This document shows positions 1-46,005 of a stretch of DNA of 64,000 nt, in pieces. The position numbers and the translations under genes were made by a program. How positions within the stretch are numbered: the first letter of the stretch is position 1; the number at the start of each line of letters is the position of its first letter. Where the stretch lies: the NCBI GenBank assembly GCA_964016885.1, contig OZ024740.1, positions 112,034,001 through 112,098,000 on the forward strand, given 5' to 3'. The notes beneath the pieces were generated by a model. It searched no databases. It was not told the origin of the DNA and saw only the letters and a list, made by a program, of their open reading frames with translations. This DNA comes from Eledone cirrhosa. Lineage: Eukaryota.

Positions 1-3000
1 CATTACTACTACCACCAACACAGCCACCATCATCATTATCATAACTACTACTACCAACACAACCACCGCTATCATTATCATAACTACTACCACCAACACA
101 CCCACCAGCCTCATTATCATAACTACTACCACCAACACACCCACCACCATCATTATCATAACTACTACCACCAACACAGCCACCACCATCATTATCATAA
201 CCACTACCACCAACACAGCCACCACCATCATTATCATAACTACTACCACCAACACATCCACCACACTCATTATCATAACTACTACCACCAACACAACCAC
301 CACCATCATTATCATAACTACTACCACCAACACAGCCACCAACCTCATTATCATAACTACTACCACCAACACACCCACCACCATCATTATCATAACTACT
401 ACCACCAACACACCCACCACCATCATTATCATAACTACTACCACCAACACAACCACCACCATCATTATCATAACTACTACCACCAACACACCCACCAGCC
501 TCATTATCATAACTACTACCACCAACACACCCACCACCATAATTATCATAACTACTACCACCAACACAACCACCACCCTCATTATCATAACTACTACCAC
601 CAACACAACCACCACCATCATTATCATAACTACTACCACTAACACACCCACCAGCCTCATTATCATAACTACTACCACCAACACACCCACCACCATCATT
701 ATCATAACTACTACCACCAACACAACCACCACCATCATTATCATAACTACTACCACCAACACAGCCACCACCCTCATTATCATAACTACTACCACCAACA
801 CAACCACCACCATCATTATCATAACTACTACCACCAACACAGCCACCATCATCATTATCATAACTACTACCACCAACACAGCCACCACCCTCATTATCAT
901 AACTACTACCACCAACACAACCACCACCATCATTATCATAACTACTACCACCAACACAGCCACCACCCTCATTATCATAACTACTACCACCAACACAACC
1001 ACCACCATCATTATCATAACTACTACCACCAACACAGCCACCACCCTCATTATCATAACTACTACCACCAACACAACCACCACCATCATTATCATAACTA
1101 CTACCACCAACACACCCACCAGCCTCATTATCATAACTACTACCACCAACACAGCCACCATCATCATTATCATAACTACTACCACCAACACACCCACCAC
1201 CATCATTATCATAACTACTACCACCAACACAACCACCACCCTCATTATCATAACTACTACCACCAACACAGCCACCATCATCATTATCATAACTACTACC
1301 ACCAACACACCCACCACCATCATTATCATAACTACTACCACCAACACAACCACCACCATCATTATCATAACTACTACCACCAACACAGCCACCAACCTCA
1401 TTATCATAACTACTACCACCAACACAACCACCACCCTCATTATCATAACTACTACCACCAACACAGCCACCATCATCATTATCATAACTACTACCACCAA
1501 CACACCCACCACCATCATTATCATAACTACTACCACCAACACAACCACCACCCTCATTATCATAACTACTACCACCAACACAGCCACCATCATCATTATC
1601 ATAACTACTACCACCAACACACCCACCACCATCATTATCATAACTACTACCACCAACACAACCACCACCCTCATTATCATAACTACTACCACCAACACAG
1701 CCACCACCCTCATTATCATTACTACTACCACCAACACAGCCACCACCCTCATTATCATAACTACTACCACCAACACAGCCACCATCATCATTATCATAAC
1801 TACTACTACCAACACAACCACCTCCATCATTATCATAACTACTACCACCAACACACCCACCACCCTCATTATCATTACTACTACCACCAACACAGCCACC
1901 ATCATCATTATCATAACTACTACTACCAACACAACCACCGCTATCATTATCATAACTACTACCACCAACACACCCACCAGCCTCATTATCATAACTACTA
2001 CCACCAACACACCCACCACCATCATTATCATAACTACTACCACCAACACAGCCACCACCATCATTATCATAACCACTACCACCAACACAGCCACCACCAT
2101 CATTATCATAACTACTACCACCAACACATCCACCACACTCATTATCATAACTACTACCACCAACACAACCACCACCATCATTATCATAACTACTACCACC
2201 AACACAGCCACCAACCTCATTATCATAACTACTACCACCAACACACCCACCACCATCATTATCATAACTACTACCACCAACACACCCACCACCATAATTA
2301 TCATAACTACTACCACCAACACAACCACCACCCTCATTATCATAACTACTACCACCAACACAACCACCACCATCATTATCATAACTACTACCACCAACAC
2401 ACCCACCAGCCTCATTATCATAACTACTACCACCAACACACCCACCACCATCATTATCATAACTACTACCACCAACACAACCACCACCATCATTATCATA
2501 ACTACTACCACCAACACAGCCACCACCCTCATTATCATAACTACTACCACCAACACAACCACCACCATCATTATCATAACTACTACCACCAACACAGCCA
2601 CCATCATCATTATCATAACTACTACCACCAACACAGCCACCACCCTCATTATCATAACTACTACCACCAACACAACCACCACCATCATTATCATAACTAC
2701 TACCACCAACACAGCCACCACCCTCATTATCATAACTACTACCACCAACACAACCACCACCATCATTATCATAACTACTACCACCAACACAGCCACCACC
2801 CTCATTATCATAACTACTACCACCAACACAACCACCACCATCATTATCATAACTACTACCACCAACACAGCCACCACCCTCATTATCATAACTACTACCA
2901 CCAACACAACCACCACCATCATTATCATAACTACTACCACCAACACACCCACCAGCCTCATTATCATAACTACTACCACCAACACACCCACCACCATCAT

Positions 3001-5815
3001 TATCATAACTACTACCACCAACACAGCCACCACCCTCATTATCATAACTACTACCACCAACACAACCACCACCATCATTATCATAACTACTACCACCAAC
3101 ACAGCCACCACCCTCATTATCATAACTACTACCACCAACACAACCACCACCATCATTATCATAACTACTACCACCAACACAGCCACCACCCTCATTATCA
3201 TAACTACTACCACCAACACAACCACCACCATCATTATCATAACTACTACCACCAACACACCCACCAGCCTCATTATCATAACTACTACCACCAACACACC
3301 CACCACCATCATTATCATAACTACTACCACCAACACACCCACCAGCCTCATTATCATAACTACTACCACCAACACAACCACCACCATCATTATCATAACT
3401 ACTACCACCAACACACCCAGCAGCCTCATTATCATAACTACTACCACCAACACAACCACCACCATCATTATCATAACTACTACCACCAACACACCCACCA
3501 GCCTCATTATCATAACTACTACCGCCAACACAGCCACCACCATCATTATCATAACTACTACCACCAACACAACCACCACCCTCATTATCATAACTACTAC
3601 CACCAACACAACCACCACCATCATTATCATAACTACTACCACCAACACAACCACCACCCTCATTATCATAACTACTACCACCAACACAACCACCACCATC
3701 ATTATCATAACTACTACCACCAACACAACCACCACCCTCATTATCATAACTACTACCACCAACACAACCACCACCCTCATTATCATAACTACTACCGCCA
3801 ACACAGCCACCACCATCATTATCATAACTACTACCACCAACACAACCACCACCCTCATTATCATAACTACTACCACCAACACAGCCACCACCATCATTAT
3901 CATAACTACTACCACCAACACACCCACCAGCCTCATTATCATAACTACTACCACCAACACAACCACCACCATCATATCATAACTACTACCACCAACACAG
4001 CCACCACCCTCATTATCATAACTACTACCGCCAACACAGCCACCACCCTCATTATCATAACTACTACCACCAACACAACCACCACCCTCATTATCATAAC
4101 TACTACCACCAACACAACCACCACCATCATTATCATAACTACTACCACCAACACAACCACCACCCTCATTATCATAACTACTACCACCAACACAGCCACC
4201 ACCATCATTATCATAACTACTACCACCAACACACCCACCAGCCTCATTATCATAACTACTACCACCAACACAACCACCACCATCATATCATAACTACTAC
4301 CACCAACACAGCCACCACCCTCATTATCATAACTACTACCGCCAACACAGCCACCACCCTCATTATCATAACTACTACCACCAACACAACCACCACCCTC
4401 ATTATCATAACTACTACCACCAACACAACCACCACCATCATTATCATAACTACTACCACCAACACAACCACCACCATCATTATCATAACTACTACCACCA
4501 ACACAGCCACCATCATCATTATCATAACTACTACCACCAACACAACCACCACCCTCATTATCATAACTACTACCACCAACACAACCACCACCATCATTAT
4601 CATAACTACTACCACCAACACACCCACCACCATCATTATCATAACTACTACCACCAACACACCCACCACCATCATTATCATAACTACTACCACCAACACA
4701 CCCACCACCATCATTATCATAACTACTACCACCAACACACCCACCACCATCATTATCATAACTACTACCACCAACACACCCACCACCATCATTATCATAA
4801 CTACTACCACCAACACACCCACCAGCCTCATTATCATAACTACTACCACCAACACACCCACCACCATCATTATCATAACTACTACCACCAACACACCCAC
4901 CACCATCATTATCATAACTACTACCACCAACACACCCACCAGCCTCATTATCATAACTACTACCACCAACACACCCACCACCATCATTATCATAACTACT
5001 ACCACCAACACACCCACCACCATCATTATCATAACTACTACCACCAACACACCCACCACCATCATTATCATAACTACTACCACCAACACACCCACCACCA
5101 TCATTATCATAACTACTACCACCAACACACCCACCACCATCATTATCATAACTACTACCACCAACACACCCACCAGCCTCATTATCATAACTACTACCAC
5201 CAACACACCCACCACCATCATTATCATAACTACTACCACCAACACACCCACCACCATCATTATCATAACTACTACCACCAACACAGCCACCAACCTCATT
5301 ATCATAACTACTACCACCAACACACCCACCACCATCATTATCATAACTACTACCACCAACACACCCACCACCATCATTATCATAACTACTACCACCAACA
5401 CACCCACCACCATCATTATCATAACTACTACCACCAACACACCCACCAGCCTCATTATCATAACTACTACCACCAACACACCCACCACCATCATTATCAT
5501 AACTACTACCACCAACACACCCACCACCATCATTATCATAACTACTACCACCAACACAACCACCACCATCATATCATAACTACTACCACCAACACAACCA
5601 CCACCATCATTATCATAACTACTACCACCAACACAACCACCACCATCATATCATAACTACTACCACCAACACAACCACCACCATCATTATCATAACTACT
5701 ACCACCAACACACCCACCAGCCTCATTATCATTACTACTACCACCAACACACCCACCAGCCTCATTATCATAACTACTACCACCAACACAGCCACCATCA
5801 TCATTATCATTACTA
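1..5815. repeat. 39-bp minisatellite array, runs off the left edge
   Basis: Unit CATTATCATAACTACTACCACCAACACA(G/A/C)CCACCACCAT repeated about 149 times. Units with a 1-bp deletion occur near 3972, 4283, 5571 and 5646. Confidence 0.97.
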
Positions 5816-6117
5816 CACTAATCACCACCATCACTATCATTACTAGCATCTCCACCATCCCCACTGCTATATCTTCCCCCACACACAACAATACGAAGAC
5901 CAGATATGTCGCCCCACCCTACAACCACCTGCAACGATGCCACCACTACCGCCACCTCTATTACCATCACTGCTAATAATGAAAACTCTATCATTGGCAT
6001 TCATAAATTTGGACAAAACGTCTTGCCGTGTCAAATCACTCCACCCCCGATCTCTCACTCTTTCTCTCTCTCACGCACTCTCTCTCTCTCACTTTCTCTC
6101 TTTTACTCTTTCTCTCC

Positions 6118-22147: not shown

Positions 22148-22460
22148 ATACATACGTACATATATGCTTGCGTACATACATACATAAATGCATGCATACA
22201 TGCATGCATACATACATACATACATACATACATACATACATACATACATACATACATGCATACATATCTACATTCATACATACATGCATACGTACGTACA
22301 TACATACATACATGCATACGTACGTACATACATACATACGTACGTACGTACGTACGTACGTACATACATACATACATACATACATACATGCATACATATC
22401 TACATTCATGCATACATACATGCATACATACGTACGTACATACATACATACATACATACA

Positions 22461-22491
<31 letters not shown>

Positions 22492-22525
22492 CTACATTCA
22501 TACATACATACATACATACATACAC
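22148..22525. repeat. (CATA)n / (CGTA)n / (CATG)n microsatellite
   Basis: Read directly from the sequence. Confidence 0.95.
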
Positions 22526-22785
22526 ACACAAATATATACAAATATACATATAGAAACACATAAACTCTTAGATAACTATGTATGCATACATATAACCTCA
22601 ACATAGCAATCTACTCGAAATATCAGTATGTATGTATGTGCGTGTGTATGATTGTCCTATTCACAAGGATGATGATGTTGACGGCTCTGGCAGTGATGGT
22701 GATGGTGGAGGTAACTGTGATGATAGGGTGGATTGACTGGGACTGGATCGTGTTTGGTGCTATGTCACGAGCTAATTCAGAGGAT

Positions 22786-42093: not shown

Positions 42094-42943
42094 TGGATCC
42101 CAGGTGGTTGCGACGATGAGTGTTACAGTTCATACGACTATCAAATGACTCTGCTCGTGAAATTAACGTGTGCACTTAACATAGTTCTCAGGGAGATTCA
42201 ACGTGACACTGTGTGAAAGCTGATCCTTTGAATTCTATTTTTTACAGCTGAGTGGATTGGAACAACATGAAATAATGTGTCTTGCTTAAGGTCACAGTGG
42301 GCCAAACGCCTCGCTGACCCCTAATCCACGCGCCTTCACTACGTATATATATACTCCTATTAAAGCTGGTCCCCTTGAATTCCAGATAGAGCCCATCTTT
42401 TACAGCTGAGTGGATTGGAGCAACATGAAATAATGTGTCTTGTTTAAGGTCACAACGGGCCAACCGCCCCCTAACCTCTAAACCATGCACCTTCATTACG
42501 TATATATATATATATACACCTATATATACACACACTAACTTATAACTTCATAAATCCCTGAAACTGACTTGGCTCAAAGAAACGTATTAACTGTCTTGAA
42601 TTCTGCAAACCAGCTTGGATCCCCGTCGGTTCTGACAATGCATGTTCCCGTTGTTTAGTCAACAACCTTTTCATGAATTCATGTACGAGTGACTAAGCAT
42701 TCCTCACGCGTATGCACTCGTAACGTAGTTCCTAGGGAATTGCGGTGTGATACTGTTTCAGACATGGCTGACCCTTTAAATTACAGAATCAACTTATTTT
42801 TGAGTGGACTAGATCAACGTGAAATTAAGTGTCTTGTCCAAGAGCACAGCACAAGAGTTGGAATTGCACCCGGCCCAAGAATCGTTTCCACGAACTTATG
42901 ATCGTGGTTGAAACATCACTTACCACGAAGCCACGCAACTTCA
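42094..42943 (-). mobile_element. Cluster of three SINE family C copies or fragments (about 42094-42340, 42363-42495, 42616-42943)
   Basis: Shared CAGCTGAGTGGATTGGA.CAAC.TGAAAT..TGTGTCTTG and TAACGTAGTTC..AGGGA.ATT segments. Confidence 0.75.
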
Positions 42944-43297
42944 CCAATTCTGCAAAGAATTTAAATGAATCTCAAAGAAATTCGTTCCTAGACAACATCC
43001 ATCCATCCATCCATGCATGCATGCATGGTGGCTGCTAACTCGTTTTCGAGTACGGCCACTACTTTATATCCATGTAGGAGAACCCCTACCGATGCGCTGA
43101 ACGAGTGTGACTTTTTAGTTCAGCCAGCAACTTGAAAACTCTGGTACAAACACTACACCTGTGACAATTATTGACACAGTGCTGGGCCCATGGTACCATG
43201 TGACGACAAGTGCAGAGAGATCTCCAGATATAAAGCAATGCCTGTGCCGTGAAGCTTTTATAGTGAGCAAAGGCACTGCACAAAACCAGTCCCACTC

Positions 43298-43397
43298 ACA
43301 TACATACAAACATACATACATACATACATACATACATACATACATACATACATACATACATACATACATACATACATACATACATACATACATACAT
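43298..43397. repeat. (CATA)n tract 5' of the tandem retrotransposon insertions
   Basis: Read directly from the sequence. Confidence 0.97.
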
Positions 43398-43636
43398 GGA
43401 GCTACGGGTTATATACCAACCCGCTTGGACCAAAGTATGACTGAACTTGGATTTGCGGACAAAAAGCGCAGCTCCCTAATTCATAGTCTACAAATGACTG
43501 CGATAGCTGGCACCTTCAAAATTTGCAAAACATTCTTGCGATTCAAGGGATGACAATTTCTTTTCTTTTACAACCTTGCCACCAGGAAGGTGGCCGGTCA
43601 AAAAAAATATATACTCGAAATTAAGAGAAAGAGATA
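43397..43636 (+). mobile_element. Severely 5'-truncated copy (last about 50 codons plus 3' UTR) of the R4/Dong-like element
   Basis: Near-identical to 45465-45701 (4 substitutions, small 3' UTR indels). Flanked by (CATA)n on both sides. Confidence 0.95.
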
Positions 43637-43713
43637 TACATACATACATACATACATACATACATACATACATACATACATACATACATACATACATACA
43701 TACATACATACAT

Positions 43714-45621
43714 CACTTACTAACTAATAAAATGATTCAAGAAAAAACAACAAAGAATCGCAGAAACATGACTGTGGTGTGGCTGGACTATCAAAAAGCA
43801 TTTGATAGTGTACCTCATGGGTGGATTGTTAAGGCTTTACAGTTAGCCAAAGTCCCACAACCACTGGTAGATGCTGTTGAACGTCTGACCAAGAACTGGT
43901 ACACCAATTTGATCCTTAGAGGTGAGAAGGAGCAAGTTAAGACTGATAGGATACATTACCAGAAGGGCATCTTTCAGGGTGATAGCTTGTCAGTGCTACT
44001 CTTTGTTCTCTCACTAAATCCACTATCTTACCTACTCAGGAAACAAGGTGGACAAAGAAGTGGGTCCAGAAGTATCTCCCATCTTTTCTTTGTTGATGAC
44101 CTGAAGTTGTATGGGCCAAATATCAATGACATCAAGAAACAATTGGACCACATTACACAATTTTCAACAGACATCAAAATGAAATTTGGTGTGTCCAAGT
44201 GTGCATATTTGGCAGTAAAACGTGGAAGAGCTGTGCCCTCCTCTAGAAATCTAGAGATGAACGGCCTGACAATACAACCTCTACAATCAGGTGACAACTA
44301 CAGATATCTTGGACAGTATGAGAATGCCAGATATGATGGACCCATAAACAAGGAGAGAAGCAGAACTGAATACCTCAGAAGAGTAAAGAAAATATGGTCA
44401 TCAGAACTGTCAACGTACAACAAATATATTGCCCACAATACTTATGCTGTGCCAATTCTAACGCCAACATTTGGCCTGCTGAACTGGCCATTGCAAGAAC
44501 TAAGTGAGATGGATGTTAGAACTCGCAAACTTCTCAGTGTTACTGGGAACTTTAACATCAATGGTGATGTGGATAGGCTATACTTCTCACGCAAGGAAGG
44601 TGGCCGGGGTCTAAAATCCATATTAACATCATATGAGACCCGGATAGTAACACTGAAGCAACACATTCAACAGAGGAAAAAGGTTGGCAACCATCTTGCC
44701 CAGGTTTATGAGTATGAAAAAAAAAATATCATTAGAATAGCCACTGATCTGGAGGAGAGATATGGAATAAAGCCTGATATAAATCTCTCACCCAGAGAAA
44801 TCGGAAGATCCTATTCAATGTTCAAACAAGATGAAAAAATTGACCAATTTACAGAAAAAGTTGTGCATGGATACTTGAGACGTAAAACACAGACCATAGA
44901 TGGGATAAACCACTCAAAAAGCCTGGCATGGAGTTCCGACAAGTTTATGACATCACACCTTGAGGGATATCTCTATGCAATACAGGAACAAGATCTCCCT
45001 ACCAAATATCTGCTGTACAAAAGGGGAGGGCCATCAGCTGACAATAAATGTAAGCTATGTAAAACAAAGATCGAGGATGTAAGCCACATTGTTGCCAGCT
45101 GCGAAAGAATGTCATCTCGCTACTACCTCCCCATGAGACACGATGGGATAGCTACAACCATCTGGAACGCACTTCGGAAAACAAAATTAACAACAAACGA
45201 GGAAGAATATATTGAGACAGATGGCACTAAGGAATACTGGTGGAACCTGAAAATAAAAACTGCCACCAAATTAAAGCACAACCGGCCTGATATTGTTGTT
45301 TGGGACCACACATTGAAAACGTGTTCTGTTGTGGAGATCACCTGCCCACTTGATGTAAACGTTGTCAGAAAAATACAGGAGAAGGAGGACATCTACGGAC
45401 CATTGATGAGGAGTTTTCAAATCCAGTATCCAAGATACACCTTTAGCTTCATACCCATTATTATTGGAGCTACGGGTTATATACCAACCCGCTTGGACCA
45501 AAGTATGACTGAACTTGGATTTGCGGACAAAGAGCGCAGCTCCCTAATTCATAGTCTACAAATGGTTGCGATAACTGGCACCTTCAAAATTTGCAAAACA
45601 TTCTTGCGATTCAAGGGATGA
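43714..45621 (+). CDS. Reverse transcriptase + CCHC zinc knuckle + PD-(D/E)xK restriction-like endonuclease, N-terminally truncated, uninterrupted frame
   Basis: RT motifs WLDYQKAFDSVPH, GIFQGDSLS, HLFFVDDLKLY, YRYLG and RKEGGRGL. Knuckle CKLC-x8-H-x4-C, then RHD and RPDIVVWD..VVEITCP. First in-frame ATG at 43732. Confidence 0.93.
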   Translation, partial: HLLTNKMIQEKTTKNRRNMTVVWLDYQKAFDSVPHGWIVKALQLAKVPQPLVDAVERLTKNWYTNLILRGEKEQVKTDRIHYQKGIFQGDSLSVLLFVLSLNPLSYLLRKQGGQRSGSRSISHLFFVDDLKLYGPNINDIKKQLDHITQFSTDIKMKFGVSKCAYLAVKRGRAVPSSRNLEMNGLTIQPLQSGDNYRYLGQYENARYDGPINKERSRTEYLRRVKKIWSSELSTYNKYIAHNTYAVPILTPTFGLLNWPLQELSEMDVRTRKLLSVTGNFNINGDVDRLYFSRKEGGRGLKSILTSYETRIVTLKQHIQQRKKVGNHLAQVYEYEKKNIIRIATDLEERYGIKPDINLSPREIGRSYSMFKQDEKIDQFTEKVVHGYLRRKTQTIDGINHSKSLAWSSDKFMTSHLEGYLYAIQEQDLPTKYLLYKRGGPSADNKCKLCKTKIEDVSHIVASCERMSSRYYLPMRHDGIATTIWNALRKTKLTTNEEEYIETDGTKEYWWNLKIKTATKLKHNRPDIVVWDHTLKTCSVVEITCPLDVNVVRKIQEKEDIYGPLMRSFQIQYPRYTFSFIPIIIGATGYIPTRLDQSMTELGFADKERSSLIHSLQMVAITGTFKICKTFLRFKG

Positions 45622-45701
45622 CAATTTCTTTTCTTTTACAACCTTGCCACCAGGAAGGTGGCCGGTCAAAAAAATATACTCGAAATTAAGAGAAAGAGAT
45701 A
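43714..45701 (+). mobile_element. 5'-truncated RLE-type non-LTR retrotransposon (R4/Dong-like)
   Basis: Begins inside the RT directly after (CATA)n, has an 80-nt 3' UTR ending GAGAAAGAGATA, then CATACATACATACAT. Confidence 0.95.
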
Positions 45702-46005
45702 CCATACATACATACATTATGGCTGCAAATTCTGCTAAGAGAATTGCCATTGCTTGTCAGGTTATAGTCTGGTACACTTTTAGTTACGGCCAGCCACATG
45801 AACCTGTGCGTTGAAGGTTTTTTTTAAGTGGGGAAAGGCCTTGCATACATACATGTGTGTGTAGAGTTTCTTAGTTCAAGAAATAATGACGAAGATTAAA
45901 TGAGCACTCAGAACATATTAATTTGTTAAACCTGTAGAGAAAATATTTATTACCATGCCTTTTAGCTAAAAGCTGAAATTATATATGTATCTTTACATAT
46001 ATATA

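Follow-up and report, generated by a model that had tools for sequence, protein, structure and literature searches.

The 64-kb window analyzed here (contig OZ024740.1, positions 112,034,001-112,098,000, from the 3.0-Gb genome of Eledone cirrhosa) contains two copies of Dong-1, a retrotransposon with a restriction-like endonuclease (RLE) whose membership of the R4/Dong clade is well supported by sequence comparison. Copies of Dong-1 sit in (CATA)n microsatellites in one orientation, likely because the Dong-1 protein would recognize the repeat, nick its (TATG)n strand and perform target-primed reverse transcription at that site, a reading based on analogy with related elements to which a probability of about 0.86 is given.

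Searches of the genome with the 3' end, the reverse transcriptase (RT) region and the 5' end of Dong-1, none of these queries holding any flanking repeat, returned 237, 1,466 and 625 candidates, respectively, and the best 40 of each were scored. Flanks were read at the distinct junctions in loci L001-L185 and the window, over 12 nt, with 3 nt skippable and at least 10/12 matches required. CATA flanks 39 of the 43 full-length 5' ends (20/21 with looser de-duplication), 49 of the 54 truncated 5' ends, whose truncation points run from position 1055 to 4158, and 74 of the 80 3' ends, and TATG was found at none of them. The strand-specific CATA targeting put forward in the earlier note is thus borne out by 162 of the 177 junctions, and the unique 5' flanks that this note associated with a mere 3' tail were not the rule, as 88 of the 97 5' junctions have CATA within 3 nt. 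Over 199,780 background positions, sampled as 20 stretches of 10 kb at round coordinates, the match rates are 1.3% for CATA and 0.9% for TATG, and a control RTE-like long interspersed nuclear element (LINE), seeded from one of these stretches, gave 0/18 for either repeat. The occurrence of CATA at both ends, the variable truncation points, the low background and the empty control together indicate that CATA is the target and not only a tail; the view of CATA as a mere 3' tail was discarded because of the 5' flank counts relative to the background.

The modal 3' junction of Dong-1 is phased, GAGA(T/A)AA being followed directly by CATA. Among the five exceptions at truncated junctions, CATA lies a few bases off in L017, and L010 and L164 have an insertion resembling a short interspersed nuclear element (SINE) inside the copy; the remaining two are considered below. 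Microhomology at the truncated 5' junctions was noisy, many rows having no anchor. In the raw reads of the public run X24, an additional 5' truncation at 44967 is joined to a loose CATA end (446 reads) and CATA extends beyond the Dong-1 3' end (723 reads), and contigs of run X4, which carries another organism label, have an identical 3' flank pattern. The agreement of these reads and contigs indicates that the flank pattern is not an assembly artefact.

The Dong-1 family, its protein and its relatives

Full-length copies, of interest to the earlier note, measure about 4.2 kb, with a 5' untranslated region (UTR) of ~630 nt, a single open reading frame (ORF) of 1,169 aa and an 80-nt 3' UTR; the 3' end is fixed and the 5' truncation points are variable. 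The ORF is essentially intact in 3 of the 39 full-length candidates (L138, L142 and L162, open for 1,165-1,169 aa), and that of L134 is open for 1,144 codons. The 28 complete copies have a median pairwise identity of 97.8%, with 99.6% for the best pair, and judged from these identities and the intact ORFs the family is young, as had been supposed. Identity is highest between copies of a subfamily that ends in GAGAAAA; the window copies fall in the GAGATA-ended group, and this T-ended subfamily is somewhat older than the A-ended one. The SINE-like insertions in L010 and L164 are the same and occupy the same position, on different contigs. At L012, L018, L073, L130 and L132, Dong-1 copies have pieces of additional Dong families next to them (protein identity 27-43%).

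A scan of the Dong-1 5' end against Rfam gave no ribozyme match, and its first 151 nt, folded under a model that leaves out pseudoknots, have a fold z of -1.2, with no ribozyme signal. A short hairpin followed by GGA(C/T)GTG lies within ~35 nt of the 5' end (L162:490-570; also in L331, L332 and L333). This motif of the tetranucleotide-clade 5' ends is similar to a downstream promoter element or to a motif of small RNAs.

A profile search with the 1,169-aa ORF matched RVT_1 and, weakly, zf-RVT, and gave no match to Exo_endo_phos, the domain of apurinic/apyrimidinic endonucleases (APE). Its motifs align with those of its relatives, and RT, a CCHC motif and a PD-(D/E)xK RLE follow one another in the single ORF. 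The AlphaFold model of the protein has a mean predicted local distance difference test (pLDDT) score of 87.5, and its best fold matches are R2 retrotransposon proteins (E 1e-34). At the N-terminus, a three-helix domain is predicted at residues ~22-73, with pLDDT above 90, on a disordered linker. Its structural neighbors are mostly Myb/SANT domains, including those of Zeste (Z 5.9, root-mean-square deviation (rmsd) 2.5, 64 residues aligned) and TRF1 (Z 5.9, rmsd 3.7, 65 aligned), and it aligns with the matching region of relatives inserted in TAA repeats and in 28S ribosomal DNA (rDNA). From this model, and with modest confidence, the N-terminal domain may be described as Myb/SANT-like, with no N-terminal zinc finger.

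Near-full-length homology, a tree and the R2 fold match all support the R4/Dong assignment of the earlier note. The nearest named homologue of Dong-1 is from Argonauta hians (52% identity); identity over nearly the full length is 30-34% to Dong-like proteins flanked by TAA and to those of Bombyx and Pediculus, and 26-28% to two 28S-inserting elements, and R2 matches are limited to the RT. Two further families occur in the same genome. Dong-2, with about 50% protein identity, has 3' ends reading AGAAGA and then ACATAC in 17/21 cases, a count biased by the fact that its copies were found beside other CATA-associated elements. Dong-3, with 33% protein identity, has 5' truncations at TAA in 9/11 and at CATA in 0/11, the copies being a selected set because the query spanned the junction with a TAA tract in the UTR of an RTE element. 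This classical TAA-targeting family (L238, L301-L330), a lineage distinct from that of Dong-1, was repeatedly found in that tract.

Eighty metagenome loci were scanned for repeats, and the end sequences of 23 near-complete loci among them were inspected. Six are close relatives (36-45% identity), and five of these adjoin (CATA)n or (CTTA)n: L332 has (CATA)n at both ends, with GAACGAA abutting CATA, and (CTTA)n lies at both ends of L333 and at a single end of L331, L334 and L336. Fourteen loci with less identity (28-32%), of which two are identical, terminate within or close to TAA runs, and another terminates in AATA. L380 and L383 (E 1e-75 to 1e-88 with Dong-1) are R4-like and lie within 28S rDNA, where L383 has a 13-bp target duplication; a duplication of this length is a mark of R4. 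Within the TAA clade, some ends of the close pair L339 and L340 carry AATA/AAAT repeats, which may reflect additional drift of the target, and in the TAA-targeting metagenome elements L340, L346, L349, L352 and L354 a tRNA-like sequence was seen right after the 5' repeat.

In a quick maximum-likelihood tree of 38 rows, with midpoint rooting and no named Repbase reference or R2, NeSL, HERO or CRE outgroup, a long-branched tetranucleotide clade containing Dong-1 (Shimodaira-Hasegawa-like approximate likelihood ratio test (SH-aLRT) 100) is sister to the TAA-targeting Dongs, which include the Bombyx and Pediculus proteins (SH-aLRT 98), and the 28S pair stands apart; a second run gave the same split. 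Use of C(A/T)TA tetranucleotides as the target thus appears to characterize an entire sub-lineage sister to the TAA Dongs, and the branch leading to Dong-1 likely abandoned the TAA repeat in favor of four-letter repeats. The predicted recognition helix reads K..LNE where the target is CATA, K..[LQ]RD where it is CTTA and mostly Q[RK]LA[DN]Q where it is TAA, a contrast drawn from small numbers and to which the TAA element L360 is an exception in resembling the tetranucleotide pattern.

Insertion mechanism and its alternatives

Target-primed reverse transcription after an endonuclease nick is established for R2 and R4. By analogy with these elements, the Dong-1 protein would bind its own RNA, its predicted Myb/SANT-like domain may read the CATA repeat, and its RLE would, as R2/R4 biochemistry suggests, nick the (TATG)n strand, the nick then priming reverse transcription of the Dong-1 RNA in place. 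Incomplete cDNA synthesis, or premature joining of the second strand to the upstream CATA, would yield the 5' truncations. CATA would stay on both sides after each insertion and leave the array reusable, so that repeated hits on one array could give rise to tandem copies like those of the window.

Insertion might instead be led by the RNA, with a read-through CAUA tail annealing to nicked (TATG)n and a protein that loosely prefers AT-rich alternating purine-pyrimidine tracts. Since CATA follows every genomic copy, read-through RNA would indeed carry it, the mixed CA/TA flanks of some copies would fit a loose preference, and the mirror pattern of an unrelated APE-type RTE group (TATG at 17/21 truncations, CATA at none; see below) suggests that tail annealing can yield strand-specific microsatellite insertion. 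However, most of the 80 Dong-1 copies have a phased 3' junction, as similarly do Dong-2 (17/21) and L332, the class of target tracks the protein tree across unrelated hosts, and Dong-1 copies avoid the far commoner pure TA, CA and GA arrays. Recognition by the protein is favored for these reasons, and guidance by RNA annealing is considered unlikely. Far less probable still is a passive origin, in which CATA would be a 3' tail or a sink in which randomly inserted copies survive and accumulate. The genome is very rich in microsatellites, and such accumulation has been proposed for Drosophila Waldo-A/B (PMC3812793), but random insertion does not account for CATA within 3 nt of nearly all 5' junctions, in one orientation, when the background is so low and the control is empty, nor would a tail explain 5' flanks at dozens of differing truncation points.

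Several observations weigh against targeting of the repeat by the Dong-1 protein. Since the best-scoring 40 candidates of each search were scored, the sample contains too few older copies; the specificity has exceptions, L034 and L040 having no repeat at their truncated ends and some flanks being mixed CA/TA tracts; and a target-site duplication is unreadable within a repeat. The Myb match of the N-terminal domain is modest (Z under 8), with nothing at E<=0.001 in Foldseek and no Myb match in Pfam. Among the relatives, L335 belongs to the tetranucleotide clade and has no repeat at its ends, each metagenome element is a single contig of unknown host, and branch support in the quick, midpoint-rooted tree comes from SH-aLRT only.

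The array in the window and its opposite-strand occupants

The features of the array are listed in Table 1. Their coordinates agree with the order given in the earlier note (CATA, 3' fragment, CATA, long copy, CATA), as do the common orientation of the copies, the absence of poly(A), the 5' truncations abutting CATA and the divergence of the copies by 4 substitutions and a 3-nt indel in the 3' UTR (98% alike over 210 nt). The account of a shared 3' end holds insofar as both copies terminate in GAGAAAGAGATA; the usual junction of the family is nevertheless GAGAAAGAGA(T/A)AA followed by CATA, both window junctions being minority variants. The note recognized the two Dong copies of the array and missed the RTE-group 3' pieces on the - strand, elements B and C.

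Table 1. Features of the microsatellite array in the window (window coordinates)
Feature	Position	Strand	Remark
Degenerate (CATC/CATG)n run	42996..43024	.	Flank or 3' tail of element B (RTE-derived, - strand)
Element B, 5'-truncated copy	43025..43297	-	~610-bp non-autonomous RTE-group retroelement, on the opposite strand of the same microsatellite
(CATA)25 target array, one CAAA variant	43298..43397	+	
Dong-1 short copy, 5'-truncated	43398..43636	+	Last 239 bp: ORF end and 3' UTR
(CATA)19 target array	43637..43713	+	Separates both Dong-1 copies
Dong-1 long copy, 5'-truncated	43714..45701	+	3' 1,988 bp of the 4.2-kb element
C + (CATA)~4	45702..45717	+	Downstream target remnant; also element C 3' tail or flank
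Element C, older RTE-group 3' fragment	45718..45843	-	Tail-to-tail with the long Dong-1 copy
CATACATACAT	45844..45854	+	Far end of the original array; element C 5' flank

The long Dong-1 copy has an open frame up to a TGA at 45619-45621, followed by an 80-bp 3' UTR. This frame matches RVT_1 (E 7.6e-18) and, weakly and under the Pfam cut-off, zf-RVT, and contains the RT motif FVDD, a CCHC knuckle and the RLE motifs NRPDIVVWD...VEITCP...K. Three of the columns that distinguish the two copies also vary among 76 other copies (45532, A51/G23; 45566, C55/T20; 45574, G65/A9). Each window copy holds a different shared allele there, and for each the nearest sequences, with 3 differences, are found at other loci and not in its neighbor. 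These alleles favor two independent insertions, which the sequences make likely and which the earlier note had also suggested. That the pair arose from one insertion by local duplication, template switching or assembly error is distinctly unlikely, even though the copies are adjacent and closely alike; besides the allele pattern, the recurrence of Dong-1 tandem pairs with CATA between them argues against it, the upstream neighbor of a Dong-1 5' end being another Dong-1 in 9 of 97 cases (and Dong-2 in another 9).

Elements B and C have their last ~40 nt in common with L236, an autonomous element with matches to Exo_endo_phos, RVT_1 and C2H2, that is, an APE-RT architecture with C-terminal C2H2 fingers, and the middle of B matches the 5' UTR of L236 at about 69%. 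The RTE label of all three is taken from architecture and motifs rather than from a tree. Copies of B, a 610-bp internally deleted derivative, are 97-99% alike and young, and those of C are 73-89% alike. Truncated 5' ends of the L236 type, from a search seeded inside the ORF, have TATG in 17/21 and CATA in none. Among the B junctions, TATG is matched by 42 of 64 at truncated 5' ends and by 61 of 87 at 3' ends, many others having TA; some of these loci came from the Dong searches and some of the junctions are internal rearrangements. TATG/TA-type repeats follow the B 3' ends, read in the sense of B. Read in the sense of the elements, the repeats that hold the RTE family and B (L097-L126, L236, L241-L270) are (TATG)n/(TA)n, on the strand opposite to Dong, and the insertions are often in tandem. 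A Dong-1 3' end faces an RTE-group 3' end across an array in 18 of 80 cases, and an RTE-group 5' part lies beyond the Dong-1 5' end in about 30 of 97, a few rows being ambiguous or from B-seeded loci. As B and C share the RTE 3' terminus and such elements face or flank Dong across arrays, the four elements of the window (B, the two Dong-1 copies and C) appear to occupy one original array, at about 42996-45854. The segments of B and C were also considered as + strand 5' ends of SINEs mobilized by Dong; this was rejected, since their fixed end is the - strand RTE 3' end and neither a tRNA gene nor any similarity to Dong was found in them.

A broader proposal can be made only tentatively, its chances being a little below even: an unreported deep branch of R4/Dong may have exchanged (TAA)n for C(A/T)TA repeats as its target in several animal hosts, through changes of the Myb-like recognition helix, and may in this genome share its arrays with an opposite-strand, TATG-tailing RTE, both LINE classes building and colonizing one self-renewing niche.

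Elsewhere in the window, about 149 tandem copies of a 39-bp unit occupy 1-5816, and a second long CATA-rich array, with interruptions, lies at 22148-22550. An old tRNA-like SINE at ~42690-42950 (-) was considered as a control; its other copies have about 72% identity and no definable ends, and its 30 loci do not enter the flank counts.

Comparison with known systems

RLE retrotransposons are in development as gene-insertion tools, and the determinants of their targets have been little tested outside R2. Dongs specific for TAA, CATA and CTTA form a natural series for locating the specificity determinant, two of them being present in one genome, with intact ORFs. For cephalopod genomics, Dong-1 supplies a rule of target choice for a LINE group that ranks among the largest with recent activity. 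The stacking of two unrelated LINE classes in opposite senses in the same arrays bears on the interpretation of insertion hot spots, microsatellite markers and insertion calls from short reads.

Nematode R4, found in 28S rDNA, and R2 share the RT-CCHC-RLE core of Dong-1 and differ from it in their rDNA target. R2 has N-terminal zinc fingers, which Dong-1 does not have. Dong of Bombyx mori, DongAG, DongBG and other R4/Dong elements in (TAA)n resemble Dong-1 in their single ORF with RT and C-terminal restriction-like endonuclease, in their N-terminal Myb/SANT-like domain devoid of zinc fingers, in the microsatellite flanking both sides and in the absence of poly(A); unlike them, Dong-1 targets (CATA)n, with (CTTA)n in its relatives, and belongs to a separate, long-branched clade. 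The Dong elements of most insects, molluscs and cnidarians are reported to target (TAA)n, and R4/Dong proteins have an N-terminal Myb-like domain (PMC7998251). The B. mori Dong carries a 5' HDV-like (hepatitis delta virus-like) ribozyme (PMC3774820), whereas none was detected in Dong-1 by Rfam or by folding without pseudoknots.

In octopus, Dong-R4 comprises five recently active families with 1,129 insertions and 4.73 Mb, of about 4.2 kb each (PMC13282606), a length equal to that of Dong-1. Their target is unstated in the main-text parts of that report and in the passages retrieved by term from PMC9115989, PMC8967140, PMC12988792, PMC13708176 and PMC10294476. Few non-reference Dong insertions were called with MELT (PMC9115989); microsatellite flanks may be the cause, although the RTE group also sits in these arrays.

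A search of the full-text literature, mostly by title and start of abstract and with Repbase and Repbase Reports outside its coverage, found no R4/Dong element targeting CATA or CTTA (tetranucleotide). As Repbase and Repbase Reports often record such targets, prior cataloguing of the CATA target is quite possible. Microsatellite-specific LINEs with an RLE include Togen, a NeSL-related element in (TG)n, and some HERO families (PMC4640811), which share this combination with Dong-1 and belong to other clades with other repeats. The Waldo elements WaldoAg1/2 and WaldoFs1, of APE type, target ACAY microsatellites (PMC3812793), a class that includes ACAT, equivalent to the CATA of Dong-1. The suggestion of the earlier note that the target was undescribed therefore holds for R4/Dong in the literature searched and not for the repeat class, so that the new part is the presence of this target within the R4/Dong clade. 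Waldo belongs to the R1 clade and its endonuclease and architecture are unrelated to those of Dong-1, which has no APE domain, indicating that the two have converged on the same target. The class of mechanism being already known, Dong-1 extends the catalogue of microsatellite-targeting retrotransposons rather than representing a new kind of system.

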